Notes under the pieces: generated by a model
Told to the model about the DNA's origin: nothing
The model's database searches: none
The model's input: only the letters and a program-made list of their open reading frames with translations
Shown: piece by piece, positions 1-39,890 of the stretch
How positions within the stretch are numbered: the stretch's first letter is position 1
Layout of the letters: every line of letters begins with the position of its first letter
Position numbers and translations under genes: made by a program
Source: Candidatus Latescibacterota bacterium
GTDB lineage: Bacteria; Latescibacterota; UBA2968; UBA8231
Assembly: GCA_965217585.1 (NCBI GenBank)
Contig: OZ244561.1
Coordinates: forward strand, 2,368,001-2,432,000
DNA length: 64,000 nucleotides
Direction of reading: 5' to 3'

Positions 1-2290
1 CCTCCACGTCCACCACGACGAAGATGTAGCCACGGTGGTCGTGGTCCCCTAACGGCCCGGCCAGAGACGGCTGGGTGGAGATCTCCCCGGTCACCGGCTC
101 GGTCGATATCCCGGTGACGGTGACCACCGTGCCCTCGACCTTGCCGGCCTCCACCGTGAACACCCTCTCGCCGCCAGCGATCGTCACCGGGATAGCGACC
201 TTGAGCGGCGCCCCCGCCAGCACCTTCGCCAGCACCTGATTGGGCCCCACATGCTCCAGGGTCACGGAAAGCGGCAGCAGATCGTCGGGGTCGGGGTTGT
301 GGCGCAGGTCGAGAAGGAGCAGCTCCTCCAGGCCGGAGAACACGCCGTCGGGAAGCGACGTCAGATCGTTGTTGTGCAGATCGAGCAGCCCCAGCTCCTC
401 CAGGCCGGAGAACACGCCGGCGGGAAGCGACGTCAGAGCGTTGTCTCTCAGCAAGAGGTTCTTCAGCTTCGTCAGGCCGGAGAACACGCCGGCGGGAAGC
501 GACGTCAGAGCGTTGTCGTGCAGCCAGAGCGTCTTCAGCTTCGTCAGGCCGGAGAACACGCCGGCGGGAAGCGACGTCAGAGCGTTCTCTCTCAGCAAGA
601 GCTCCTCCAGCTTCGTCAGGCCGGAGAACACGCCAGCGGGAAGCGACGTCAGACCGTTGTTGTACAGACGGAGCAGCTTCAGCGCCTCCAGGTCGGAGAA
701 CACATCGGCAGGAAGCGACGTCAGAGCGTTGTTGTGCAGCCAGAGCTCCTCCAGCTCCGTCAGGCCGGAGAACACGCCGGCGGGAAGAAGCGACGTCAGA
801 GCGTTGTTCAGCCTGAGCTTCTCTAGCGCCGTCAGGTCGGAGAACACGCCGGCGGGAAGCGACGTCAGAGCGTTGTCGTACAGCCAGAGCAGCTTCAGCT
901 TCGTCAGGCCGGAGAACACGCCGGCGGGAAGCGACGTCAGAGCGTTGTCGTACAGATAGAGGCTCTCTAGCGCCGTCAGGTCGGAGAACACGTCAGCGGG
1001 AAGCGCGCTGAGCGTGTTGCGGCTCAGACTGAGGAACGTCAGCGCCGTCAGGCCGGAGAACACGCCGGCGGGAAGCGCGCTGAGCGTGTTGCCGCTCAGA
1101 TTGAGGCTCTCTAGCGCCGTCAGGTCGGAGAACACGTCGGCGTCAGGAAGCGTGCTGAGCGCGTTGCCGCTCAGACTGAGGTACGTCAGCGCCGTCAGGC
1201 CGGAGAACACGTCAGCGCGAAGCGACGTCAGATCGTTGTCGTGCAGATCGAGGCTCTTCAGCGCGTCCAGGTCGGAGAACACGCCGGCGGGAAGCGACGT
1301 CAGATCGTTGTCGTTCAGCCAGAGCTTATCTAGCGCCGTCAGGCCGGAGAAATCACCCGGCTTCAAGGACTGGATGTTATCATCCTCGAGATTGAAAGTA
1401 CCCGTCACGCTGGCCAGTTGCGTTGTCGTCACCTCGGCGCAGTCCGACACGCCGACGATTGCAGCCATGATCGCGTCCCGCACCTGAGCGGTGCGATCGC
1501 AGATGCTGGACAGCTGCCGCGTTCCACCGCCGGGCGCGCCGACGGGATCGTCCTCCCCGTCCGGGTCGGCCGGGTCGTCGGCTTCGACGAAAGTCGACTG
1601 CGGCGCGGCCGGCGTGGCGACGTGGAACCAGCGGGAGCGTTCGCTCACCCCGTGCGCGTTGATCGCCTTGATCCGGTAGGTATACGTCGTGCTTGCAGCC
1701 ACCGTGTCGTCGGTGTACGTCGTCGCCGCCGTGCCCGTATCCGGCACCAGTTCACTGAACTCGCCCCCTTGATCGTTCACGCGCACGCGCCGCAAGATCA
1801 CGTAGCCGGTGATGCTGGCGTCGCCAGGGTCGGCCCAGGTGAGCACCACCTGGCCGAGCGTCGCCGTGGCGGACAGCCCCGTGGGCTGGGCGGGTACGGG
1901 CGCCGCCGGCGTGTCGACGTGGAACCAGAGGGAGCGCTCGCTCACCCCGTACGCGTTGATCGCCTTGATCCGGTAGGTATACGTCGTGCTTGCAGCCACC
2001 GTGTCGTCGGTGTAGGTCGTCGCCGCCGAACCCGTGTCCGCTACCAGCTCATCGAAGTGGCCCTTCTCGTCGGTATCCCGGTTGCGCCGCAAGATCACGT
2101 AGCCGGTGATGCTGTCGTCGTCAGGATCATCCCAAGTCAGGGTTATGGCATCGTGGGACGCCGTGGCGGACAGCCCCGTGGGCTGGGCGGGTGCGGAGTC
2201 CTCCTGCGCCTGCACTGGTGAGCAGAGCAGGGCCAGCGCCGCGATGGCGGCGAACAGAACGGGGAATCGTCGTCTATCGGTGCGAGTCAT
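1..2290 (-). CDS. Secreted FN3 + leucine-rich-repeat surface protein (3' end runs off the window)
   Basis: Absent from the ORF track because it has no stop in the window. Manual translation from ATG 2290 (AAGGAGG RBS upstream) gives MTRTDRRFPVLFAAIAALALLCSPVQAQ (signal peptide), two FN3 domains (PAQPTGLSATA...LTW...GYVILRR...YTYRIKAIN), a cap (ICDRTAQVRDAI) and about 15 LRRs of type LxxLxLxxNxLTSLPAGVFSG. An in-frame upstream ATG at 2404 also has a GGAGG RBS. Confidence 0.92.
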   Translation of the reverse strand, partial: MTRTDRRRFPVLFAAIAALALLCSPVQAQEDSAPAQPTGLSATASHDAITLTWDDPDDDSITGYVILRRNRDTDEKGHFDELVADTGSAATTYTDDTVAASTTYTYRIKAINAYGVSERSLWFHVDTPAAPVPAQPTGLSATATLGQVVLTWADPGDASITGYVILRRVRVNDQGGEFSELVPDTGTAATTYTDDTVAASTTYTYRIKAINAHGVSERSRWFHVATPAAPQSTFVEADDPADPDGEDDPVGAPGGGTRQLSSICDRTAQVRDAIMAAIVGVSDCAEVTTTQLASVTGTFNLEDDNIQSLKPGDFSGLTALDKLWLNDNDLTSLPAGVFSDLDALKSLDLHDNDLTSLRADVFSGLTALTYLSLSGNALSTLPDADVFSDLTALESLNLSGNTLSALPAGVFSGLTALTFLSLSRNTLSALPADVFSDLTALESLYLYDNALTSLPAGVFSGLTKLKLLWLYDNALTSLPAGVFSDLTALEKLRLNNALTSLLPAGVFSGLTELEELWLHNNALTSLPADVFSDLEALKLLRLYNNGLTSLPAGVFSGLTKLEELLLRENALTSLPAGVFSGLTKLKTLWLHDNALTSLPAGVFSGLTKLKNLLLRDNALTSLPAGVFSGLEELGLLDLHNNDLTSLPDGVFSGLEELLLLDLRHNPDPDDLLPLSVTLEHVGPNQVLAKVLAGAPLKVAIPVTIAGGERVFTVEAGKVEGTVVTVTGISTEPVTGEISTQPSLAGPLGDHDHRGYIFVVVDVE
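310..1380 (-). repeat. About 15 tandem 72-bp repeats encoding 24-aa LRRs
   Basis: The motif ggagaacacg recurs at about 335, 407, 479, 551, 623, 695, 767, 839, 911, 983, 1055, 1127, 1202 and 1274, with a variant at 1346. Spacing is 72 nt except one 75-nt unit. Confidence 0.95.
1600..2195 (-). repeat. Two near-identical ~300-bp FN3-coding units
   Basis: Long shared stretches, e.g. cgcgttgatcgccttgatccggtaggtatacgtcgtgcttgcagccaccgtgtcgtcggtgta at about 1655 and 1952. Confidence 0.9.
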
Positions 2291-2445
2291 GGTCGTTCCT
2301 CCTTGTGCTTGTGGGGGGGTATGGGACGCCGGAGCGATAGCGAGAAACCGAGTGCTCAGCCGCTGAGGCCGGCGCAGACTCCGGTGCGTGGATAGCGGTC
2401 TCATGATTCTCCTCCGTTTGGATAGTGAACGTGTTCGGGCAGGCG

Positions 2446-2490
2446 CAAAAAGAAAGGGCGAACGTCTGTAAATAAGGAACAAACGTTCAT
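2446..2490 (-). terminator. Putative intrinsic terminator in the leader of the LRR gene
   Basis: Minus strand reads GAACGTTTGT-tccttattt-ACAGACGTTC followed by gccctttctttttg (hairpin plus U-rich tail). Confidence 0.5.
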
Positions 2491-2827: not shown

Positions 2828-5194
2828 TCAGTAAACTACTGAGACCAACTCGGCAGCCAGCTCGGTGCTCCCATCCCCTTTGACCTTCAACCGCGCTATA
2901 TAATTGCCCGGCGGCACTTGCCCTCCCGTCCCGGTGCGCCCGTCCCACGCCAACCGCAGCGGTCCGGCCATGCCCATCGACTCTACCCCGGCCACGCGCC
3001 GTCCCGCCAAATCGAAAATCTCCAGCTGCACGGGCCGCGCTGTCAAAACATCGACCAGATCCAGTGCGACGACCAACTCGTCGTTGACCCCGTCGCCGTT
3101 GGGCGTCAACACGCTGGGGGCAATGGACATATTGGCCCACAAGGATCGACCCAGCGGCAAGCGCACCACATTGGTGCTGCTTTCCACCAACTCCGCAGCA
3201 TCCCCTGGTTCGACCCGCTGGCGCACGGGCTCGGCCAGACGACTGTCCTCCAGGAACAGCTCAAAGCGAGTGGCGTCGAGGAATATGGCCGCGGCAAAAT
3301 CCACTTCCACCAACTGCCCCGAGCGCACTGGCTGCGGCAATTGCACGGCAAAACCATCCTCCACCGCGGCCACTGCCGCTTCCCGCACCACCCCATCCAC
3401 CCGCACCTGGTCGAACTGCAAATCCGTCGAGGCCTGCACCAATAGTCGGTCAAAGCCGTTGCGCGTGCGCACGGGCCGCACATAGTAGGTGAAAATCTCC
3501 TGCCGGCCCGGTTGCACCAGCACGGGTGCCAGTTCCGCGGCCACCTGCTGGGCCAGGGGCTCGGAAAAATTCAGCACCACCCAATCCAGCAGCGCCCCCA
3601 CCGCCGGATCGCCGGATACCAGCCGCCCTTCCAGCTGCACATAGCGCCGCATGGAGGGCGACTGGAAGGGCTGGTCCGGCTCCAAGTACACCGGACTCCA
3701 CGGACTCCAATCCGCCCCTGGCACAAAGACCGTGTCAATGGGCCCGCGAAAAGAGGGGATGCGCCGCTCCCACTGCCGCTGAGTGATTTCCTTGCCCTCT
3801 GGATTGCGGTATATCACCTCGGTGTCGAGCGTATTGCCCGAGCGGCTGCGCAGCTCCAGATGCGTGCCCCCCGGGGCCTGACCGCCCCAGCGCAAGGCAT
3901 TGATATTCTTCTGTCCCTGTAAATCCAAAATGGGCGAGCGCAGATCTACCTGGACCGGCACGCCGCGGCCAAAGACCTGGAGTTCGGAGATAGTACCAGA
4001 AGCTCCGCAGCCGCGCGCAGCCGCGCCGCCGAACTCGTCGCCGCAGTTGGCGTCCCACGTCTTCCATCTGATGCGCACAAAGCGGACCGGTAGACTGGTA
4101 AAACGGTGATCGGCCAAGCCCTGTACCCGGTTGAGCTGGCCGCCCCAACCGGAGAAGTGCTTGGTCCAGAGCAGCGAGCCGTCCGGGGCCCGCGAACCGT
4201 CCGAGGTCAATACCTCGTAGAAATTGAACGAGAATCCGCGGTACTGGCGGGAAAAGGTGATCAGCCGCACCTGGTCGACCCAGTAAACAGCCCCCAGATC
4301 CAGGGTGATCTGGGCAATCACATCGGCATCGGCCCGGGTCGCCCGGATATTAGACCAGACTGTGCTGATGCGGCCGTCCATCAACTGCAGGGCATTGGCC
4401 AGATTCGGGGTATCGGGCTTCTTGGTATCGACCCCCACGACAATGTCCACGCTGCCGCCTCGCTTGATGGCCCCTTGTACCAGATTGTCGCCAAAGGCCT
4501 CCACCTCGATCTCGACCAGTCGCGCCTCGGGTGCCGCTTTCAGGACCTCTACCCGCACGAAGTGCACTGGGAAGGGCTCGTCCGGGTTCAATTCATAGGT
4601 GATCCGGCGGCGGCGGTCCTCGGTAAAGCGCTCTTTAATCCGGTACGCCAGGGTGCCTTCTATCTGCGTGCGGGTCTCGTCGCGGAACTGTTCGCCGGTG
4701 GACAGCAGCAGATCGAAAATCTCAAAGGGAGGCCCTCGCGCGGAAAAAACCAGATGCACCCGGTGGGCCGAAACCACCCGGCCCAGATCCACTTCGACAA
4801 ACCAGTCCTCGACCCTCTCGTCCAAATCCGGACCCCAGCCTGTGTCCCCGTCCCCGTCCAGCACCCCCGGTGCCTCTAGGGCATTGGAACCCACCCGGCT
4901 GATCCCCCCGCCAAAGGCCACCGCGTCCAGGGCCGCATTGTTGTTCTGGCGCACCGCCACCGGCCGAATGATCCCCTCTCGCGTCAGCTCCACCGCCCCC
5001 AGGGGCAACTCCCACTGGCGCCACTGGGCCGCTGTTGCAAAGCGCAACTCGTCGCCGGCACCCTTTTGCCAAGGGGCCAACAGAATGCCGATGGCGAGCA
5101 AAAACGCCCGGCCTGAATCCATCGCCGCACGACGGAAAATGCCCCCACTCGCCGCCGCATCCCGGCGGATTTCTACTCCCTGCTCCATCGACAC
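2828..5194 (-). CDS. Secreted protein with discoidin/CBM-like segments and a C-terminal FlgD/CHU_C-like domain
   Basis: 788-aa ORF with a hydrophobic signal (AFLLAIGILLAPW), WFVEVDLGRV and ITLDLGAVY motifs, and C-terminal SIAPSVLTPNGDGVND...IFDLAGRRV...WDGR...PGNY. The true start may be downstream (e.g. MDSGR). Confidence 0.75.
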   Translation of the reverse strand: MSMEQGVEIRRDAAASGGIFRRAAMDSGRAFLLAIGILLAPWQKGAGDELRFATAAQWRQWELPLGAVELTREGIIRPVAVRQNNNAALDAVAFGGGISRVGSNALEAPGVLDGDGDTGWGPDLDERVEDWFVEVDLGRVVSAHRVHLVFSARGPPFEIFDLLLSTGEQFRDETRTQIEGTLAYRIKERFTEDRRRRITYELNPDEPFPVHFVRVEVLKAAPEARLVEIEVEAFGDNLVQGAIKRGGSVDIVVGVDTKKPDTPNLANALQLMDGRISTVWSNIRATRADADVIAQITLDLGAVYWVDQVRLITFSRQYRGFSFNFYEVLTSDGSRAPDGSLLWTKHFSGWGGQLNRVQGLADHRFTSLPVRFVRIRWKTWDANCGDEFGGAAARGCGASGTISELQVFGRGVPVQVDLRSPILDLQGQKNINALRWGGQAPGGTHLELRSRSGNTLDTEVIYRNPEGKEITQRQWERRIPSFRGPIDTVFVPGADWSPWSPVYLEPDQPFQSPSMRRYVQLEGRLVSGDPAVGALLDWVVLNFSEPLAQQVAAELAPVLVQPGRQEIFTYYVRPVRTRNGFDRLLVQASTDLQFDQVRVDGVVREAAVAAVEDGFAVQLPQPVRSGQLVEVDFAAAIFLDATRFELFLEDSRLAEPVRQRVEPGDAAELVESSTNVVRLPLGRSLWANMSIAPSVLTPNGDGVNDELVVALDLVDVLTARPVQLEIFDLAGRRVAGVESMGMAGPLRLAWDGRTGTGGQVPPGNYIARLKVKGDGSTELAAELVSVVY

Positions 5195-5233
5195 CCGCTT
5201 CCCCTTTGACAGAGTTTGTGGACATTTATACTA

Positions 5234-5256
5234 ATAAAAAGCGACGCATGCGTCGC
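5234..5256 (-). terminator. Intrinsic terminator closing the ECF sigma / mini-RNAP operon
   Basis: Immediately after the TAG, a perfect palindrome GCGACG-CATG-CGTCGC followed by TTTTTAT on the minus strand. Confidence 0.8.
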
Positions 5257-5258
5257 CC

Positions 5259-8200
5259 CTAGGCCGGCAGCCCTGCAAAGAGCCGGCTGAACAGGCTGGT
5301 CAAGGGCTCGGTCTCGCCGCGCTCGGCCGCCCTAGCAAAGACTACGCCCGGCTGCGCCGCCCTAGCGGCCCGGCCCAAAATGTGGTAATCGGCCCGGCTA
5401 GGCCGCTGGGCCGCTTCCCGCGCCTCGGTCCAGCCCTGGTTGGTGGCGGCCAAACCCCATAGGGCACGCGGTGCCCGCACCTTGGCCTCCTCCACCGACA
5501 GGCCGTCGCGCCAACAACCGCGCTGAGCGAATAGACTACCATCTTCCCGATAGATCAGCCCGCCGCCCACGTATTGGATCAACTGCTGTTGGTTGCCCCG
5601 CGCCCCCGACAGCGCTAACAGGGCTAGGGGCCCCAAGTCGTTGTCGTCGAAATCGGCCTGCTGGTGGAAAGCCGCCACTAATTCGTCGCTGTACATTTGC
5701 CACTCGTCCCAATCGATCTCTGCGGGCTGCTCGGGCCACTCCTTGCCCGAACCGAGGAAGGGGTTGAAGGAGGCTCCAGACTGCTTGCAGACCTCAAAAC
5801 CGCGCCGCGTCAGTCGGTCGAGTACCTCCAGCGCTCGCTCCAAACCCTCGCGCTGCAGCACCTGGACTAGCAAGCGGTTGAGATCGCGCTTGGCGAACAG
5901 CCGGCTGCCATCCACGGCCACTCCGATCAGCCCCTCCACTTCAGCGCGACCTTCCTCCGTGCGGCACAGCCGCGCCAAACCCCATATCATGCCGTGGTAG
6001 TTGTCGGCCACGTAGCGCCATACATCCGCATCGCGCTGTATGTGTCCGGCCACCGACAGCGCGGTCTCGGCTTCGGCCTGGGCTTCCTCAGTGAGGGGCA
6101 AAAACACCTCTATCTGATCGCCATCGAAATCTAGCTCCATCAGTCGGCAAACGCGCGGATGGACGCGCACTGCGGCCCCGGCCAAACGCTGCGGACGAAA
6201 GGCCACCATCGCGGTGGGCGGCACGTGGAACACCGGGCCGTGGCCCTCGTCCACCAGCACCCGCTGGGCGCTGTATAGCAGCACCCACGAGCGTGCCATG
6301 ATCGCGTCCAGAACCTCAGCCGCTCGGGCCGAACGCCGCGCCACTTCCTCGGCGCGATCCATCTCCCGCTCTACCTGAGGCGCGAACAAAGCCCAGGCCA
6401 TTTCCTCGGGCAGGCCCACTTGGTCGAGATTCAACTCAAAACCCGAGGCAAGCGCGGCCCGGCCGCTAAACAGCGGCCTAGCCCGGAAGTGGAGGTGCTC
6501 CGGGCGCAACAACGCAGAAAAAAGATCCTCCACCCGTTGGGCCACCTGGGCCACCGCCGGTCTGACTAGGGCCTCGGGCGCTTCGCTATCGACGATGCGC
6601 TGCAAGCGCGTATTGGCTTCGACCAAATCCTCGAAGCAGCCTCGGATTGGGTCGAACTCGGTCCCCACTGGCAAAGCAACGGGGGATCCCACCGTCCCCA
6701 CTTGGCGTCCTGGGGCCCACGGATGTGGCACTGGGCGGGCCAAGGTCAGCCCCTCGGACTCGGCGAAGGAAAAGCGCAACTCCGCGCTCGCCAACTCGGC
6801 CCGTATCCCGGCCATACCCAGTAGCTGCTGCAACAAGGCAAAGCGCGGGGACGGGGGCGGGGACGGGGATACCGGACCGGTGGCCAAGCACTGGCCCAGC
6901 GCATTGGCGTCGGGCCGCTCGGCCGCGGCCGTGTTGAACAAAGCGTGGATATTGGCTACGGCCCCGGCCTCGCGCAAAGCACCGTAGGCCATCATGTCGA
7001 TTTCCGGTCCGCCGGCTCCTGCCACCGCGGTTTCCAAGCGCTCGGCCGCGGTGTGGGTCAGGCGGCCCCAGTACACCCAACCCACAGTACTGCGATAAGG
7101 CAGCTCCTCGCCTTTGAGGGTCAGTTGCTCCATGCCGTCTTCGGGCAGTCCCGCCTCGACTAGACGCGCTTTCAACATCTCTTCACTGGGTGCCTGAAAA
7201 GGTGGCACCACCGCCGGGTGCCCGGCGGCCTGGGCGAGGCGACCCATGACCGCCTCGCGCTGCTGGCCGAAATTGAGCCGCGAGACCATACTGGTGGGAC
7301 TGAAGATGAGTTCTATCGGCGCACCATCGGGCAACTGCGGCATGTCGGCGTCGGGCAGGATGCGCGTCACCACCCCTTTGGCACCGTGGCGGTTGCTCAT
7401 GCGGTCGCCCACCCCCACTGCGGCGGGAAAATCCATCCGCGCCGCGGCCGACTCGCTAATGACTAAGCCATCCTCAAACGTGTCCCCATCCCACATGATG
7501 AAGGCGGTCAACAGATTGTAGCCACCCCAAAAGTCGACGGCCCCAGGCTCGTATCCCGTCTGCACTAGGGCCGGCTCGGGTTTGTGGCCCTTGGAGGCCA
7601 AGCGTTGGTCGTACTGCTGGCGGAACCAACCCGTGGAGTGGATCGGTGCCGCTGTATCGGCTGCGCTCGTCCACTGGCGCATCATATTGATGCCCATCAG
7701 GGCGCGATTGGTATCGTCGTGTTCGAGAAAGGGCACCATGGAGGCCGAAAAACCCAAGATGCTGTCGGGCGCTTTGTCGATTCGTTCGAGCTTGCCGTCG
7801 CGGATGCGGGCACCGCGGGCCACTTCCAGCACTCGGCCGATATTGGGCCCTTCGGGGGTGCAGTAGGGGCACACTAGGCCGTATTGGCTGTAGGAGAAAA
7901 CGTCTTGGTCGTCAAAAGGCTCGACGACGACGGGGATCAAAGTCAGCCGCCGCAGATGGGTATAGCGGTCCAGCCAGTTGGTCGCCTGTAGATACTGCGA
8001 AGTTTCCTCCAAGTGGAAGTCGCGCAGCCAGGCGTCCAGCGGCAGCCAGTTGCGCACCAAGTCGCCATCCCAAGCCAACTGCTCGGGGGCCGCCTCCAAC
8101 CTTTGGTCAATAAAGTCGTAGAGCTGCTCGCCCACGCACAGAATCCGCGCTTGGTCGAGTTCGCGCCGGTCGGGATAGGGGACCACGACCCGGTAGTTGC

Positions 8201-8432
8201 CTTCAATGTGGAAAAGGCCATCGCGGTCGGGCCGAGGCAAATCCCGGTACTCAACCTCGACCGAGGCATCGCCGAGTCCCAAGCTCAGTTTAATGGAAAA
8301 AGTATAAGAGTCCTGTTGTTCGACTTGATAGTCGGCCAGCGGCAAGCGCTCGCCCAAAAGCCGGGGCAGTCGCTGGTGGACGAAAAGGTCAAAAGATTCC
8401 CTATGCCAAGGTACGTCGAGATTCAATGTCAT
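5259..8432 (-). CDS. Miniaturised single-chain RNA polymerase beta-beta' (RpoB-RpoC)-like fusion protein, 1057 aa
   Basis: Colinear RpoB motifs: [112 protein letters not shown]. These are followed by RpoC motifs: [24 protein letters not shown], FSGR...[51 protein letters not shown]. Confidence 0.93.
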   Translation of the reverse strand: [1057 protein letters not shown]

Positions 8433-9028
8433 TGATGTTCCTCCGGGTTATGGATAGCCTGCCAAGCCTGTGAGAGCTGGCGGCGGCCGTGGTGCAGACG
8501 CGACTTTACGGTGCCTTCGGGAATGCCCAGTCGCTCGGCGGCGTCCCGCACCTCGACTTGGGCGTCGTAGATCAGACGGAAAACCTCGCGCTTGTCCTCG
8601 GACAACTCTTGTACCTGTCGCCGCAGCCAGCGCTGCTGGTCAGCCCACTCCACTTGGGCGTCGGGGCGCTCAGACGCGGCCTCAATCATCCATTCGGGCA
8701 CTTGCTGCGTTTCCTGCTCCACGGTTTCAGACAGCATTTCCAGCCGCTGCTCCCGCCGCCGCCGCACAGTGCGCAGGTGCGTCAGGGAAAGATGAGTAGC
8801 AATGCGGAACAGCCAAGCAGCCACAGACCCTCGACCACTCCATTGGCCAGCCCGGTTCCACACCCGCAAGAAAACCTCTTGTACTACATCGTTAGCACTC
8901 GCATCGTCGCGGACGATGCAGCGCACGTGATGGTGGATCTGCTCCCGATAGCGCTCAAAGAACTGCTGGAACGCGCATGCGTCGCGTTCTTTTATTTGCG
9001 CTATAAGTTGTGGATCCGGTATCTGCAT
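8429..9028 (-). CDS. ECF (group IV) RNA polymerase sigma factor
   Basis: 199 aa with region 2 (ANDVVQEVFLRVW...AWLFRIATH) and region 4 HTH (AAERLGIPEGTVKSRLHHGR). Its stop overlaps the next gene's start (ATGA). Confidence 0.95.
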   Translation of the reverse strand: MQIPDPQLIAQIKERDACAFQQFFERYREQIHHHVRCIVRDDASANDVVQEVFLRVWNRAGQWSGRGSVAAWLFRIATHLSLTHLRTVRRRREQRLEMLSETVEQETQQVPEWMIEAASERPDAQVEWADQQRWLRRQVQELSEDKREVFRLIYDAQVEVRDAAERLGIPEGTVKSRLHHGRRQLSQAWQAIHNPEEHQ

Positions 9029-9045: not shown

Positions 9046-9073
9046 AAGACGCCGCCCGGAAAGTACAGGTTCA
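9046..9073 (-). promoter_or_regulatory. ECF-type (probably autoregulatory) promoter TGAACC-N16-CGTCTT
   Basis: Minus strand TGAACC tgtactttccgggcgg CGTCTT lies about 18 nt upstream of the sigma ATG. It matches the AAC(-35)/CGT(-10) ECF consensus with a 16-nt spacer. Confidence 0.7.
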
Positions 9074-33983: not shown

Positions 33984-36900
33984 CTAAAAGAGCGATAGCT
34001 GCTCAGCCCCCCGTCGGCGCGGCATTGCCACATCCTCGCGCGCGAGCAATCGAGCGGGGATCTCTTCTACAAACGGCGATAGCGCACATTGCACCCGCTC
34101 GCCATAGCGCTGGCGGCTGCGCGCCCGCAGCAACACTAGCTCCTCCTCCGCCCGCGTCATACCCACGTAAAAGAGCCGTCGCTCCTCGGCGAGGTCGGCG
34201 TCCCGCTCGCGGAAGGGGATGAGTCCATCCTCCACCCCGCAGACAAATACCACTGGGAACTCCAAGCCCTTGGCCGCGTGCAAGGTCATCAGCGCGACGG
34301 CCTCCGGGCCTTGGGGACCGCCCCGCTCCTCGTAGTCGGCCTCCGCGCCTAGGAGCACAGTCTCCAGTAGCTGTGCGAGCGTTCCGGCCGCGTCCGCTAC
34401 TCGGGCCAAGTGCTCCAAGTCCTCGTCCTCCGGGTCGCCGAACTCGGCCTGCCAGCGCCGCACCCAAGTACCCGCCCCCTCCTGCGCGGCCCATTGCCTG
34501 TACTCCGCTATCCGCGCCTCTAGCGCCTCGACCCGATCCTGTGCCGCGGCCGACAGTTCCCCCCGTCTCACTTGGCGCAAAATGTGCGGCTCCGTGCCCA
34601 TGGCCTCTAGTGCCTGCCAGCGGCGCACGTCCTCTTGCGAAATTGAGGCGTAGCGGGCAAACGCCAAAGCAGCTCGCACCGCCGGCGCTTGCAGAAAACC
34701 CTTATGCCCGACGAGCCGATAGGGCAGACCCTCCCTGCGGAAGCATTCCTCTAGCGCTCGGCCCTGTTGGCCAGTGCGGAAGAGCACGGCAAAGTCGGCG
34801 AAACTGCGCGTGCCCTCTGCGCCGGCATCGGTCTGCACCATGTCGGTACCGCCGACCATGCGGGCAATCTCCCGCACCACCGCAATGCCTTCAGCCGTCT
34901 CGCCCTGTACCTCCATTAGGCGGATTCGCTCCTTTCCCGGGCGCACGGCCGCGAGTTCAATGGCCTCGCGCCCCGGATTGTGGCTGACGACGGCAGTGGC
35001 GGCCTCGACAATATGTCCCTGTGAGCGGTAGTTCGCACCCAGATGAAAGAGTCGCGTATCCGAGAAACGGTCGCGCAAGTGAACGAAGTAGGCGGGCGAA
35101 GCTCCGCGAAAGCTGTAGATCGCTTGATCCGGGTCGCCGATAGCCATCAGACCCGCGCCCGCACCCGCTAACTGGAGGACCAATCTATACTGCGCGGCGT
35201 TGAAGTCTTGGAACTCGTCTATTAGCAGGTAGGGAAAACGCGCTCGCACCTGTTCCCGCACGGCTGCATCCGCTTCTAAGAGGCGCAGCAAATCCAAGAG
35301 AATGTCGTCGTAGTCGCAGGCCCTGGACGCGTGTAGAGCCGCCTGATAGGCGTCGTAATGCGGTCGCCACTCCTCGGCGATCTCATCCGGCCCTTGCGCG
35401 GCGGCCTTGGCCAGCGAGATGGCTCGACCGGCCCCGGCAACCGGCCCCGGCAAACCGGCGTCTGCCAGCGCCCCTTCCAGCACCCGGCGCGCTTCCACCT
35501 CGTCGAGCACCAGCTTTGGCTCGCAGTCCAACTCCCGCAAGAGCGACAACGCCAAGCGGTGGAAGGTCCCCACCTGCATCGCGCCCAGCCCGGACTCACC
35601 GCCCAACAATGCGCTCAGCCGCTGCCGCATCTGTCCTGCCGCTCGCCGGGTAAAGGTAATGGCCATGATCTGCCCCGGGTCCACGCCGCTTGCGACCAGC
35701 CGCGCAATGCGCCGCGTCAGCACTCGGGTCTTGCCCGACCCTGGCCCGGCTACGACCACTAAAGGCCCTCCTGCGGCCTCTTCGATTTGCCGCTGTGCGG
35801 CGTCGGGCGCATCCGCGTCCTGCTCCGCTTGTGCGGTGCTAGCGGGCCTTGGCGGCATCGGCACCACTTCCTCAGCCGTCTTAGCGGCCGCTGGGCCCAA
35901 GTCGAACAGCACACCTTGCCCTTTTAAGCGCGCCCGCTCCTCCTCGCTGAACACGCTGATCACGCCGTACTCCCCATCGTGGCCAGGGTAGATGTCCACC
36001 TCGCCGCAGCGCATCCGGCGCACACCCTCGGCCACCAACGGCCCGGCGCAACTTTCAATCGCTGCGAGTCCGGCGCGGCGCAATACGTCGAGTTCCGGGC
36101 CGATCTCGGCCAAGAGCCGGTCGTACACGGCGCGAACTTTTTTGCTCTTTGGACCAACGCCAATTGCTGCGCCGATCACTTCGTCGAGCGGGATCAAGTA
36201 CTCGTAGGGTGGAGCAATATCCGGGCGGAACCCCTCCGGGCGATCGGCCAGCCGTTCCACCCGGTGCAAAACCCCCACCGTCAGCTTGCGTCCGCACACC
36301 GGGCAGATTCCCTCAGCGGCCAGTGTTTGCGCGGGCTTGTAGCACACCGCGCACTTGCGGTGTCCGTCGTAGTGGTATTTGCCTTCTTCAGGATAGAATT
36401 CCAAAGTGCCCAAAAAGCGCGCTGGGTCGCGGTCTTTGAGCGCGGAGTAAATGCCCGGATACGAGCACTCGGTGTCAAAGCACGTGGCCTCGCGGGCCAG
36501 CTTTTGCGGCGAGTGGGCGTCGGAATTGGATACGATCGCATAGCGGTCGAGGGCCGACAGCCGCCAGTTCATCGGCGGATCCGAGGACAGGCCAGTCTCC
36601 ACCGCGAAGATGTGCGGCAGCAAATCCCCGTAGCACTCCTCCAACGAGTCAAAGCCCGAAGAGGCCCCCAAAGCGGCAAAGTGCGGCGTCCATATATGGG
36701 CCGGGACGAATAGCACGTTCTCGTCGGCTTCGAGACAGATTTCTAAAAGGTCGCGACTGTCCAGCCCCAAGATGGGTCGGCCGTCGGACTTCAAGTTGCC
36801 AATGACACCGAGGCGGCGGTTGAATCGGGCGACGGATTCGAGGGTGGGTAGGATGACGACGTGGTGGATCTTGCGGGTTTTGTCGCCCTTCTTGTAGATA

Positions 36901-37187
36901 GTGCTTATTTCCACCGAAAGCATGAAGCGCACGGCGCGGTGGCAGTGCTCGGGCAACTCTTGTTCGACGACGGCGCGGCGACCGGGTTCGAGTTGGTACA
37001 GCCCCTCTTCGGCTGGTTCGAGTTGCTCCGACAGCTCGGCGAACCACTCGGGATGCGTATAGTCTCCCGTTCCGACCACGTCAACGCCCTTGAGCGCCGA
37101 CCACTTGTGCAAGTTGGAAGGGTTGAGGTCGCGGCTCGTCGCTCGCGCAAAGCGCGAGTGCAAATGCACGTCGATTACGAACTGCAT
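33984..37187 (-). CDS. Endonuclease Q-like PHP domain fused to a UvrD/REP helicase
   Basis: DVHLHSRF, GTGD, SNSDAHS, GKYHYDGHRKC and CPVCG, then AGPGSGKT, DEFQD, GDPDQAIYSFRGA, TLHAAKGLEF and EERRLFYVGMTRA. Confidence 0.92.
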   Translation of the reverse strand: MQFVIDVHLHSRFARATSRDLNPSNLHKWSALKGVDVVGTGDYTHPEWFAELSEQLEPAEEGLYQLEPGRRAVVEQELPEHCHRAVRFMLSVEISTIYKKGDKTRKIHHVVILPTLESVARFNRRLGVIGNLKSDGRPILGLDSRDLLEICLEADENVLFVPAHIWTPHFAALGASSGFDSLEECYGDLLPHIFAVETGLSSDPPMNWRLSALDRYAIVSNSDAHSPQKLAREATCFDTECSYPGIYSALKDRDPARFLGTLEFYPEEGKYHYDGHRKCAVCYKPAQTLAAEGICPVCGRKLTVGVLHRVERLADRPEGFRPDIAPPYEYLIPLDEVIGAAIGVGPKSKKVRAVYDRLLAEIGPELDVLRRAGLAAIESCAGPLVAEGVRRMRCGEVDIYPGHDGEYGVISVFSEEERARLKGQGVLFDLGPAAAKTAEEVVPMPPRPASTAQAEQDADAPDAAQRQIEEAAGGPLVVVAGPGSGKTRVLTRRIARLVASGVDPGQIMAITFTRRAAGQMRQRLSALLGGESGLGAMQVGTFHRLALSLLRELDCEPKLVLDEVEARRVLEGALADAGLPGPVAGAGRAISLAKAAAQGPDEIAEEWRPHYDAYQAALHASRACDYDDILLDLLRLLEADAAVREQVRARFPYLLIDEFQDFNAAQYRLVLQLAGAGAGLMAIGDPDQAIYSFRGASPAYFVHLRDRFSDTRLFHLGANYRSQGHIVEAATAVVSHNPGREAIELAAVRPGKERIRLMEVQGETAEGIAVVREIARMVGGTDMVQTDAGAEGTRSFADFAVLFRTGQQGRALEECFRREGLPYRLVGHKGFLQAPAVRAALAFARYASISQEDVRRWQALEAMGTEPHILRQVRRGELSAAAQDRVEALEARIAEYRQWAAQEGAGTWVRRWQAEFGDPEDEDLEHLARVADAAGTLAQLLETVLLGAEADYEERGGPQGPEAVALMTLHAAKGLEFPVVFVCGVEDGLIPFRERDADLAEERRLFYVGMTRAEEELVLLRARSRQRYGERVQCALSPFVEEIPARLLAREDVAMPRRRGAEQLSLF

Positions 37188-37379: not shown

Positions 37380-37439
37380 ATGAAGGTAGCGGACATCTTC
37401 GTCAACGACACTGAGACGATTGTGGAGGTAGCATTATGA
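37380..37439 (+). pseudogene. Possible 3'-terminal remnant of a site-specific DNA methyltransferase gene
   Basis: Reads MKVADIFVNDTETIVEVAL*, resembling the recalled 'KVVDIFGNDT' C-terminus of Mod-type methyltransferases. Its stop overlaps the next ATG. Confidence 0.4.
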
Positions 37440-38626
37440 GTGAGCCTATTTCCGTCAATTCCCAAGTCTTGCGCTGGGCGCGTACCAGCTTGGGTCTCTC
37501 GCAGGAAGAAGTGGCTCAGCGCATGAATAAGAAGGCCACAGAGGTTGATACTTGGGAACGCGGCGAGGCGTCTCCAACATATATTCAGTTGGAAAAGCTG
37601 GCATACAAAATCTATAAACGCCCGATCGCATTGTTCTTTTTTCCCGAGGTGCCGGAAGAGGAAATCATAGAGCAAGAATTTCGCACCTTGCCAGAGGACG
37701 AACTGCTGCGTATTCCGCCATGGATGCGTTACCTACTCCGCAAGGCAAGAGTACTACAACTCAATCTTGCCGAACTGTATGAGGGTGTCAATCCGGCAAA
37801 ACGCAGAATATTACACGATCTTGATTTTGCTCCCTCTGCTGCCGCTACCGATATGGCGGAGCAAGTCCGTACCTATTTGGGCATTGAACTCGCTCAACAA
37901 CAGACATGGAAAAATACAGAGGACGCTCTCAAGCATTGGCGGGAAATGTTGGAGGAATGCGGAGTTTTTGTTTTTAAAGACACCTTCAAGCCGCCTAGAA
38001 GAAGGGGGACAGGTACGGGCGATATTCCTTTTTCTGGTTTCTGCTTGTACGACCCATATTTTCCGATTATCTACGTCAATAACAACAACGCTAAATCCCG
38101 TCAGATTTTCACCTTGTTCCATGAACTAGCGCATCTCCTGATGCATACTGGCGGGATAGATACTCGACAGGACAACTACATTGAGCATATGACCGGCGAC
38201 AATAGGCGCATAGAAGTGCTCTGCAATCTGTTTGCCGCTGAGTTTCTGGTTCCCTCCTATGATTTCGAAGCGCGTTCGGCTGGTGTTTCTATTGACGATC
38301 ACGCTATTGAAAATTGGGCTAGTCTGTACTGCGTTAGTCGCGAAACCATCCTGCGTCGCCTGCTCGCCCAGGGACGAGTGCGTCAACAGGATTACGAACA
38401 GCAGGTAAAGCAATGGTCAAAGGATCAAACGGGAAGTGGAGACACGGGCGGTGATTACTATCGGACCAAGGGAGCGTATCTAGGTGAACGGTACATTGAA
38501 ATGGTGTTTAGCCATTATCACCAAGGGAATATTTCCGTGGAGCAAGCCGCTGACTATCTAGGTGCACGGACGAAGAATGTCCCTAGAATAGAAGAATGGC
38601 TCTTCAATCAGGGAACAAGGACATGA
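37436..38626 (+). CDS. XRE HTH + ImmA/IrrE metallopeptidase
   Basis: N-terminal HTH (LRWAR..LSQEEVA..WERGEASPT), RQIFTLFHELAH (HExxH) and EVLCNLFAAEFL. Confidence 0.92.
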   Translation: MSEPISVNSQVLRWARTSLGLSQEEVAQRMNKKATEVDTWERGEASPTYIQLEKLAYKIYKRPIALFFFPEVPEEEIIEQEFRTLPEDELLRIPPWMRYLLRKARVLQLNLAELYEGVNPAKRRILHDLDFAPSAAATDMAEQVRTYLGIELAQQQTWKNTEDALKHWREMLEECGVFVFKDTFKPPRRRGTGTGDIPFSGFCLYDPYFPIIYVNNNNAKSRQIFTLFHELAHLLMHTGGIDTRQDNYIEHMTGDNRRIEVLCNLFAAEFLVPSYDFEARSAGVSIDDHAIENWASLYCVSRETILRRLLAQGRVRQQDYEQQVKQWSKDQTGSGDTGGDYYRTKGAYLGERYIEMVFSHYHQGNISVEQAADYLGARTKNVPRIEEWLFNQGTRT

Positions 38627-38715
38627 CGGTCTATGTGTTCGATAGCGGCCCACTGATTGATCTTTTTCGCCACTATTACCGCGATCGTTTTCCCTCTTTG
38701 TGGGAAGCGCGTTAG
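38623..38715 (+). pseudogene. Truncated DUF4411/PIN-like gene (N-terminal 30 aa)
   Basis: MTVYVFDSGPLIDLFRHYYRDRFPSLWEAR* overlaps the ImmA gene stop. This is the position and N-terminal pattern of the usual DUF4411 partner. Confidence 0.6.
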
Positions 38716-38762
38716 TCGCGAAATCATACTGCTTCGCCTTCTTGACTAAGGATAATTTTGAT

Positions 38763-39890
38763 ATGTCTTTGACTTCGCATTTGAAATATACACATAGCCC
38801 GATTCGGAAATTTTTGCGTTTGACGTTTTCAAATCGCTCGTTTCTTAAAGATGCTAATAAGCTAATGCGGTCTGCATCTGTAGTACTGCCCTGTAATTCC
38901 AATTCTCTTGGGACTATTGGCCTCGCTCTAGATTATCGAATTCGATATTATTTTGCTAGGACACCGACTAGGGAGCTTTTTGCTTTTCATGGGCTACGGG
39001 GACTTTTATACTTAAATAGTGCTGGAGATAAAACCAAAGAAACTTACAAGAATTTTCTTGAAGGTCTTGATAACTTTATAGATTTCAATACCCCTGTTAA
39101 TAGGCGATTGTCGAAGACTGAAGAGGACGAGCTCAATCGTTATTGTTTTATTTTAGCTTTATTAGAAGAAGTATATAGGCTTGGTAAAATACATCCAAAT
39201 TCACTATTAGCAGGAGATTGTACTTCTGTCCAAGAATTACTTAATCTTGCTGATAATCAGAGTATCGTCGATTTGCGTACACTTTCCTACAAGTTTTATG
39301 ACAATTTCCAGCAGATGTTGACGCTTCCTCATATCCTCAATCCAACATTTGATGGATCGGCAGATGTTAGGGGAGCCGATGCAGACTTGATAGTTGACGG
39401 TACACTGATCGAGATCAAGACCACAAAAAGAAAAGATTTGAAAAGGGACTGGTTGTATCAGTTATTAGGATACGTTTTGCTTGATTATACGAATCGGTAT
39501 GATATACGACGTATTGCTTTTTACATGACTCGACAAGGAATCCTGATTGAATGGGATTTAGAAGACGCCATAAGTATTTTGTGCTCTGGTACTCGACCGA
39601 AGCTCAGTGAGTTGAGAAGTCAATTTCAAAAAATTGCACTAGCTTGGACCCACACCAACAGGGGAAGAGCCTACATACGTAAAGGGGAATATGACCGGGG
39701 TGTCGAGGAACTGAGTCAAGCTATCCAGCTTAACCCTGACTATGCCGCAGCCTACAAAATCAGGGGAGTAACCTACGGCTACAAAGGCGAGTATGACCGA
39801 GCTATTGAGGACTTGAATAAGGCGATCCGACTCAACCCTAACTATGCTGCAGCCTGCAACGGGTTAAAGAAAAAGTTATCATCCTATTGA
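38763..39890 (+). CDS. PD-(D/E)XK nuclease-like protein with C-terminal TPR repeats
   Basis: LNPTF...GADADLIVDGTLIEIKTT...YQLLGY, then two TPRs (RGRAYIRKGEYDRG..AIQLNP; RGVTYGYKGEYDRAIEDLNKAIRLNP). Visibly AT-rich. Confidence 0.8.
   Translation: MSLTSHLKYTHSPIRKFLRLTFSNRSFLKDANKLMRSASVVLPCNSNSLGTIGLALDYRIRYYFARTPTRELFAFHGLRGLLYLNSAGDKTKETYKNFLEGLDNFIDFNTPVNRRLSKTEEDELNRYCFILALLEEVYRLGKIHPNSLLAGDCTSVQELLNLADNQSIVDLRTLSYKFYDNFQQMLTLPHILNPTFDGSADVRGADADLIVDGTLIEIKTTKRKDLKRDWLYQLLGYVLLDYTNRYDIRRIAFYMTRQGILIEWDLEDAISILCSGTRPKLSELRSQFQKIALAWTHTNRGRAYIRKGEYDRGVEELSQAIQLNPDYAAAYKIRGVTYGYKGEYDRAIEDLNKAIRLNPNYAAACNGLKKKLSSY

Follow-up and report, generated by a model that had tools for sequence, protein, structure and literature searches.

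A sigma-linked, single-chain mini RNA polymerase without a trigger loop, and its altered active site in one Latescibacterota clade

We found a gene for a mini RNA polymerase (RNAP) and a gene for an extracytoplasmic function (ECF)-type sigma factor, joined in a module with its own promoter, in a 64,000-nucleotide stretch of contig OZ244561.1 from a Candidatus Latescibacterota bacterium (the window, that is, the whole stretch analysed; Table 1). The mini-polymerase is a one-chain derivative of the RNAP core, with a β-like part followed by a β′-like part, and has about one-third of the size of the bacterial core. On balance, the family to which it belongs probably functions as sigma-directed polymerases without a trigger loop. 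The copy in the window may well be, as we tentatively propose, a weakly catalytic or non-catalytic mimic of the core that acts through sigma and DNA binding. The initial annotation of this DNA concerned the range 5259-6300 (residues 711-1057 of the mini-polymerase) and did not include the promoter or the sigma gene, the two elements that set the context for the function of the mini-polymerase. The module of sigma factor and mini-polymerase is larger than that observation and apparently undescribed.

All the motifs quoted in the initial annotation are found in the translation of the mini-polymerase gene: MELDFDGD at residues 765-772, LLYSAQRVL at 718-726, FSGRA at 655-659, TFEDG at 318-322, RHGAKG at 348-353, SRLNFGQ at 384-390 and GRLTH at 456-460, with the bridge-helix-like WRDGLSVEE...GLAATNQGW at 974-1001 and the tail FARAAERGETEPLTSLFSRLFAG at 1032-1054. 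Pfam recognises Rpb2_6 (3.7e-32), Rpb1_2 (8.9e-13) and Rpb2_3 (6.5e-07) within the single chain, and solved bacterial β and β′ chains match it at 2e-46 and 1e-21, respectively. Together with the alignment of the family profile to Escherichia coli β and β′, these results show the motif matches to be homology rather than chance. An AlphaFold model (71 homologues; predicted local distance difference test (pLDDT) 93.5, predicted template modelling score 0.92) matches β and β′ or Rpb2 and Rpb1 chains in Foldseek with E-values down to 4.5e-23, and VIA-align superposes the β module on Rpb2/β chains with Z 26-31 and a root-mean-square deviation of 2.5-3.0 Å over about 450-520 residues. The protein thus has the two-barrel fold with a bridge helix. 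It is nonetheless not a standard transcriptase, as the initial annotation held. It scores 167 bits against the rpoB model TIGR02013 (cut-off 801) and 93 bits against the rpoC model TIGR02386 (cut-off 963.5), and the NCBIfam rpoB, rpoC and fused-rpoBC models match it piecewise, far under their cut-offs. Canonical rpoB (1271-amino-acid frame) and rpoC (1366-amino-acid frame) lie side by side at 5.40 Mb of the same 7.3-Mb genome, in which the mini-polymerase is the sole extra RNAP copy.

The family profile aligns to residues 118-148 (weakly), 474-580, 651-707, 791-821 and 1054-1341 of E. coli β and, directly thereafter, to residues about 99-110 (weakly), 268-309, 337-516 and 586-792 of β′; the last match reaches through the bridge helix, and the profile ends at β′ 792. 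The β-like module comprises an N-terminal family-specific helix, the fork/Rif region, TPEGPNIG, NRALMG, FED, RHGAKG, SRLN and the β C-terminal region. Retained in the protein are DFDGD, FED, RHGxKG, SRxN, SGR, SGARG, the bridge helix and the clamp coiled coil, while the trigger loop, SI3, the jaw, the flap, the rudder and most of the β lobes are gone. About 60% of the canonical β and β′ sequence is missing. Where E. coli has the flap region (β 822-1053), D321 and R348 are separated by 27 residues, which is also the family median.

The trigger loop is truly absent, throughout the family. In the AlphaFold model only 49 residues follow the bridge helix, and no cryptic trigger loop, the finding that the initial annotation had named as refuting its suspicion of a loss, is visible among them. 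Across 177 family members, a median of 83 residues separates the invariant G977 from the C-terminus; the profile is empty between β′ 792 and about 1330, and the trigger-loop motif of β′ region G, GEPGTQLTMRTFH, does not occur. The region-H-like tail is the most conserved stretch among family members; its single local match to E. coli is weak (β′ 1330-1350, E 0.07), and it also weakly matches residues 1299-1315 of the host's own canonical β′. The genome gives no sign of a trigger loop encoded elsewhere, its sole Rpb1_5 (trigger-loop) domain being in canonical rpoC. The short tail, the end of the profile and the single Rpb1_5 domain together support this absence. The initial annotation had gone on to suggest that the enzyme, if active, may be slow or non-processive. 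The lack of the loop does not by itself predict this: the loss is shared by the whole family, and YonO of the Bacillus subtilis prophage SPbeta is, as described in PMC5467207, fast and highly processive without a recognisable trigger loop.

The sigma factor consists of regions 2 and 4 alone (Sigma70_r2 2.6e-15, Sigma70_r4_2 5.3e-14), and the polymerase gene follows immediately downstream, its start overlapped by the sigma stop by four bases (ATGA). In this partner Pfam finds RNAP domains only and no anti-sigma domain. In 77 of 81 sources, the polymerase is preceded by a homologous sigma gene of the same orientation, with 44-56% identity between phyla, and the pairwise distances of sigma and polymerase are closely correlated (Mantel r 0.976, p 0.001, 66 loci), as expected of a pair inherited together. 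Besides sigma, no conserved neighbours or cargo were found across the compared loci. The sigma and polymerase genes of one Latescibacterota subclade are separated by a gene for an ABC transporter with ABC_membrane and ABC_tran domains (L036, L040 at 4162-5958, L041, L044, L045, L048-L050 and L054-L056), and the promoter is still ahead of sigma.

The clamp coiled coil is the canonical docking site of sigma region 2. The β flap, an insert in the β barrel with the sandwich-barrel hybrid motif, is the docking site of sigma region 4. According to PMC7824862, cellular enzymes use the flap to bind sigma or TFIIB, which makes a sigma-linked polymerase without one unusual. A candidate stand-in for the flap tip in the docking of sigma region 4 could be the N-terminal family-specific helix, in which W9, H10, S13, L22 and P23 are at least 90% conserved and which has no counterpart in E. 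coli β. This helix lies within residues 1-130 of the polymerase (window 8432-8040, reverse strand).

The promoter in the window ends 19 nt ahead of the sigma ATG. The strict motif TGAAC-N16-GTGTC is present in 51 of the 77 sigma loci, with a spacer of 16 nt in 49 of those 51, and usually ends 18-24 nt ahead of the sigma start codon. The window's clade has the one-base variant GCGTC; when either base is allowed (TGAAC-N16-G[T/C]GTC), instances come from 68 of the 77 loci with a sigma gene and are conserved across phyla. In a profile scan of the 7.3-Mb genome, the module's own promoter scores 41.3 bits and the next match 18.2, and the bare core motif occurs at 24 sites against 25-27 in three shuffles, indicating no genome-wide enrichment. 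A stricter pattern matched the module's own promoter in four of five other genomes (the fifth has a 15-nt spacer, outside the reach of the pattern), and one of these four has a single extra site. This extra match, in the L088 genome (5479751-5479776, about 180 nt before a 291-amino-acid open reading frame), may be chance, since the reversed-pattern control likewise gave one match. A sigma regulon beyond the operon was thus not detected in the genome scan or in the five other genomes, in which weak sites would escape. Judging from these sequences, promoter, sigma and mini-core seem to form a closed unit, with no further regulon detectable. Three RNA libraries from two studies contain contigs that match parts of both genes at 90-97% identity. 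These contigs are compatible with transcription in relatives and prove nothing, because they carry no strand or start information and DNA contamination is possible.

The family comprises 472 loci in 185,579 one-per-species genomes (472 of 507 candidate stretches encode a relative), distributed among Latescibacterota, Poribacteria, Gemmatimonadota, Hydrogenedentota, Chloroflexota, Planctomycetota, Armatimonadota and Verrucomicrobiota and often located on megabase chromosomes. A word-indexed search gave 533 relatives, the best 120 of which are about 600-1,074 amino acids long (most 1,000-1,074); few of these 120 carry a name in their source, and this is always 'hypothetical protein'. An exhaustive search gave 380 cluster representatives at E ≤1e-30, with canonical rpoB/rpoBC only from about 1e-61. 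A phage or plasmid origin was rejected: viral contigs gave no close relative but merely distant segments at 22-56% identity, and plasmids gave canonical rpoB/rpoC only, none of 68 records covering 80% of the query. Some viral contigs (L099, L101, L102, L107, L110, L144 and others) have stretches of about 3.8-4.5 kb that match both the β-like and the β′-like parts, from residue 136 or 182 to about 982 at 22-28% identity; they fall outside the mini-polymerase family and may be adjacent or fused phage RNAP genes. A literature search, with subscription-only papers outside its scope, found no description of the family, and the ECF classification paper, which it included, has no Rpb1/Rpb2 or rpoB/rpoC context terms in its text and one supplementary file. 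The family is therefore apparently undescribed so far.

One Latescibacterota genome has two copies of the module (L034 and L070, at 1.42 Mb and 3.36 Mb), and L070 is without a recognisable promoter motif. A few loci have damaged module genes: the polymerase is in two open reading frames at L057 and L083, the sigma frames are short at L013 and L020, and a stop interrupts sigma at L075. These could reflect sequencing error or ongoing gene loss.

Profile alignment puts the motifs of the mini-polymerase on β E813/D814, K1065/K1073 and R1106 and on β′ R352, N424-H430, N458-D464 and R731. The window's copy keeps the following equivalents of catalytic-site residues: K352 for β K1073, R344 for K1065 (a conservative K to R change), E320/D321 for E813/D814, R243 for R678 and R385 for R1106, and, in the β′-like part, R658 for R352 and R945 for R731. 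Two hallmarks of two-barrel polymerases are accordingly present, namely the DxDxD metal triad on the β′-type barrel (D768/D770/D772) and two basic and one acidic residue on the β-type barrel (R344, K352 and D321). The Arg and Pro of the third, the RxPxLH motif (β′ R425 and P427), are replaced by S721 and Q723. This agrees with the initial annotation, which had noticed ribose-sensing residues changed around an intact triad: R425 is S, P427 is Q and N458 is E. In addition, the Arg of YGR (β R557) is L, and the bridge helix has P988 for β′ H777 and L991 for β′ R780. A pairwise HMMER alignment alternatively sets FHVPPT beneath NRAPT. We rejected this placement because FHVPPT lies in a low-confidence loop that is missing in 16-18 of 19 close relatives, and none of the alignments supplies an Arg at the R425 position.

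The equivalents of R425 and P427 (Rpb1 R446 and P448) are among the eight residues common to all two-barrel RNAPs according to PMC2919709. In the account of PMC7862312, R425 is the main determinant against 2′-deoxynucleotides, R425K cuts selectivity 17-fold in binding and 25-fold in incorporation, and the effects of N458S are small.

Among 71 diverse full-length members of the family, the triad is conserved at D768 in 68, at D770 in 69 and at D772 in 68, so that the lack of DFDGD conservation that the initial annotation had named as a refutation is not seen at the family level. The R425 position has R in 57 members and S in six, the P427 position has P in 59, and the N458 position has N in 40, D in 17 and E in eight. 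The family consensus is the canonical NRAP and NADFDGD, and YSAQ with MELDFDGD is a derived state. The ribose-pocket changes are thus a trait of the window's clade and not of the family, 37 of the 71 members jointly keeping R425 and N458. Most members hold the full catalytic set (NRAP, NADFDGD, both β lysines and the arginines), which makes RNA synthesis directed by a sigma, in the absence of a trigger loop, the most likely ancestral job.

A tree of 135 rows, for which 42 of 48 near-identical relatives (≥84% identity) had been thinned out beforehand, places the window's copy in a 17-row clade with 100% support. No row of this clade retains R425 or P427, and 16 of the 17 rows have E for N458. 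The β R557 equivalent is L or W in 16 rows, and the β′ R352 equivalent (the Arg of SGR) is left in merely seven. The R780 equivalent is L, whereas it is R in 95 of the 118 rows outside. The triad itself is broken in six of the 17 clade rows (DFDGN four times, SFDGD and YFDGD once each) against five of the 118 others, a contrast with a Fisher p of 5e-4 when kinship between rows is ignored. Parsimony requires at least four triad changes in the clade and four among the 118 rows outside. The K1073 equivalent is present in 11 of 17 clade rows and in 115 of 118 others. The degenerate lineages are not debris: the members of the pairs P0065/P0070 and P0062/P0064 are full-length and have their lesions in common across sizeable divergence, and the degenerate locus L025 still has sigma and promoter. 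Moreover, 45 positions, E766 among them, are conserved specifically in the clade and rare elsewhere, a pattern that speaks for a new constraint and against decay. From these alignments, the clade looks like a case of changed function in which polymerase chemistry became dispensable.

Because the sugar contacts and several arginines are replaced, and because sister lineages lost a triad Asp and/or K1073, the window's copy no longer appears to be a normal template-copying polymerase. The family would have begun as a sigma-directed mini polymerase lacking the trigger loop; the window's clade would then have replaced β′ R425, P427 and N458, β R557 and β′ R780, and sister lineages would subsequently have lost a triad Asp and/or β K1073 while staying intact and linked to sigma. 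The resulting core mimic would be made together with sigma, bind it through the kept coiled coil, and occupy DNA or control the availability of sigma. If it still synthesises anything, on the Mg triad that it retains, this would be a slow, residual activity with no selectivity for the sugar. More tentatively still, we suggest that bacteria of at least eight phyla carry a portable transcription machine of two polypeptides, which has been converted to a binding-only pseudo-polymerase in one Latescibacterota clade. Such a machine would be composed of an ECF-type sigma and a mini-core of roughly 1,000 amino acids, and would initiate at its own dedicated promoter.

Several observations weigh against a core mimic in the window. 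Its subclade retains D768/D770/D772, K352, E320/D321, R243, R385, R658 and R945. Among the 19 close relatives, MELDFDGD, FSGRA, TFEDG, SRLNFGQ and SGARG are invariant though 393 of the 1057 columns vary, and the median ratio of non-synonymous to synonymous substitution rates (dN/dS) is 0.16 over 171 pairs. An invariant active site with a low dN/dS is how a still-working active site would be expected to look. Judged by branch lengths, triad loss elsewhere in the clade came to about one event per unit of length. If the window's subclade evolved in an equally relaxed way, the chance that it would show zero loss is about 0.1-0.3 by our own rough estimate; the data are therefore compatible both with a triad that is still selected and with one that is not yet lost. 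The clade keeps 173 of 202 family-conserved positions, which is more than sigma capture alone needs. A protein of 1057 amino acids without a known anti-sigma domain would be a costly partner for sigma, and it is not evident what the output of sigma would be if its one detectable promoter served a non-enzymatic partner.

The predicted complex of the two proteins counts as weak evidence for sigma binding. It was computed with sigma and residues 284-1057 of the polymerase, excluding residues 1-283 with the conserved helix, and scored 0.46 against 0.00 for the best of three controls, graded as weak. The runs share at least 33% of contacts, with a partner pLDDT of at least 65. The pass mark is reached by 116 of 157 solved complexes and by two of 215 mismatched pairs, and scores of 0.60 or less include merely 18 of the 157 solved complexes plus both passing mismatched pairs. 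Since sigma-core complexes have already been solved, the score may come from the memory of the model rather than from binding.

Alternatively, the window's copy may still be an active sigma-directed nucleotide polymerase in which the rebuilt pocket (S721, Q723, E766 and L767) relaxes or inverts selection at the 2′-OH. Lacking a trigger loop, it would then take up deoxynucleoside triphosphates (dNTPs), a mixture of nucleotides or modified ones, or else yield short products, as proposed in the initial annotation. We regard this as a serious alternative, though less likely than a core mimic. The triad and the equivalents of K1073, E813/D814, R678, R1106, R352 and R731 are invariant in the 19 close relatives, which have the low dN/dS given above. 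A selected pocket is also suggested by the 50 clade members listed at ≥70% identity, all of which have the three Asp and E766 and 49 of which have YSAQ. The R425 variants treated in PMC7862312 point both ways: R425K incorporates 2′-dGMP faster and is less selective, and R425L no longer pauses before dG, but R425L is also strongly defective in processive synthesis. PolD, the family D DNA polymerase, offers a precedent, being, in the account of PMC7708050, a two-barrel core turned into a DNA polymerase by changes in the motif aligned with RxPxLH; so does YonO, with its speed in the absence of a recognisable trigger loop. The RNA-library contigs matching both genes are compatible with expression. 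On the other hand, the S/G-x-Q and E signature is shared by sister lineages that persist after losing a triad Asp and/or K1073, indicating that the conserved function of the clade is independent of catalysis. E766 is kept even in these degenerate members, and several arginines lining the hybrid are lost in the clade. As for the altered substrate, dNTP use is possible, while the pattern as a whole looks more like relaxed or lost chemistry than a neat substrate switch.

Neutral damage in a module that is being lost from the clade would explain the repeated loss of catalytic residues and the split or truncated genes at the five damaged loci named above, and we consider it very unlikely. The 171 pairs evolve at a dN/dS of 0.16, all 50 clade members listed at ≥70% identity have a full-length open reading frame, the clade has gained 45 conserved positions, and promoter and sigma are retained. 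Equally improbable is a decoy, that is, an idle copy of the cleft, amplified by feedback between sigma and promoter, which would soak up RNAP-binding antibiotics or phage inhibitors at the Rif-pocket region, the switch regions and the bridge helix. In favour of a decoy, catalysis is dispensable in part of the clade while the cleft fold (173 of 202 positions; the high pLDDT of the model) and the region homologous to β 474-580 are kept, and the module is a closed autoregulatory unit without conserved cargo. Against it, most family members keep catalytic residues that a decoy would not need, no conserved resistance or defence genes lie nearby, and there is no direct evidence for it.

We also compared the module with known systems. 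Like the mini-polymerase, YonO is one polypeptide of about 100 kDa with both barrels and no recognisable trigger loop; PMC5467207 presents it as a DNA-dependent RNAP that is error-prone and unable to cleave RNA. Its homology to multisubunit enzymes is very distant, it is phage-borne, and the same text, where it deals with YonO, mentions no sigma. The mini-polymerase differs in its clear β/β′ descent, chromosomal location and tie to sigma, and we set the two apart by description. Orf6 of yeast cytoplasmic linear plasmids, as portrayed in PMC2919709, also has the order Rpb2::Rpb1, with about half of the sequence deleted and no detectable trigger, rudder or lid. Compared by description, Orf6 is of eukaryotic/plasmid origin and without sigma, unlike the mini-polymerase. 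Full-length β-β′ fusions (NF007172 and NF011417) also have β followed by β′ in one chain. They are about 2,840-2,890 amino acids long with all domains, and the mini-polymerase scores 157 bits against a cut-off of 5372. PolD shares a two-barrel core without the RxPxLH Arg and a changed sugar-selectivity motif, and has, as outlined in PMC7708050, a histidine steric gate and partner subunits, for which no counterpart was identified in the mini-polymerase. ECF sigma/anti-sigma operons resemble the module in their two-domain sigma, translationally coupled partner and GAAC...CGTC-type promoter; the module is distinct in that the partner is an RNAP-core derivative and no regulon is detectable beyond the operon.

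If the family is active, it would include the smallest sigma-dependent RNAP known and a ready-made orthogonal set of sigma, polymerase and promoter. It would also represent a natural deletion experiment on the bacterial enzyme, with trigger loop, flap, rudder and jaw gone and the large subunits fused. This raises the questions of what a minimal sigma-using core is and how sigma region 4 docks without a flap. The window's clade is a natural series from a canonical pocket through a rebuilt sugar pocket to the loss of a triad Asp and Lys, and could show how a two-barrel polymerase changes its substrate or becomes a pseudo-enzyme.

Table 1. Features of the sigma and mini-polymerase module in the window
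Feature	Position	Strand	Basis and remarks
ECF-type promoter	9048..9073	-	TGAAC 9073-9069, 16-nt spacer, GCGTC 9052-9048; read from sequence
ECF-type sigma factor gene	8429..9028	-	199 amino acids; open reading frame and Pfam
Mini RNA polymerase gene	5259..8432	-	Single-chain β::β′ fusion, 1057 amino acids; open reading frame, Pfam, homology and model
β-like module, residues 1 to about 560	6753..8432	-	Family-profile and structural alignment
β′ clamp coiled coil, residues 594-641	6510..6653	-	Model helices 594-615 and 620-641; aligns with E. coli β′ 268-309
YSAQ, residues 720-723	6264..6275	-	Replaces β′ N424-R425-A426-P427; family alignment columns
Variable loop after YSAQ, residues 725-736	6225..6260	-	pLDDT <50; mostly missing in 16-18 of 19 close relatives
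MELDFDGD, residues 765-772	6117..6140	-	Triad D768/D770/D772 kept; E766 = N458, L767 = A459
Bridge helix, residues 980-1008	5409..5495	-	AlphaFold model and alignment
Region-H-like C-terminal tail, residues 1015-1057	5262..5390	-	Directly after the bridge helix, without a trigger loop

No RNA family of Rfam matches anywhere in the window. Downstream of the polymerase, 64 nt past its stop, lies a gene for a 788-amino-acid protein with F5/8 type C and CHU_C/FlgD-Ig domains (2828-5194, reverse strand), followed by a gene for a large fn3 and leucine-rich-repeat protein (2-2482, reverse strand). The F5/8-type-C gene is probably outside the module, since it is downstream in only three loci. Farther away, a stretch on the forward strand (37436-39890) has a guanine-plus-cytosine content of 0.44 against about 0.61 elsewhere, and encodes a helix-turn-helix and IrrE/M78-peptidase protein and a tetratricopeptide-repeat protein of 396 amino acids each. 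It is adjoined by a gene for a 1067-amino-acid UvrD-like helicase with a long N-terminal extension (33984-37187, reverse strand), and together they may form a mobile or defence islet.

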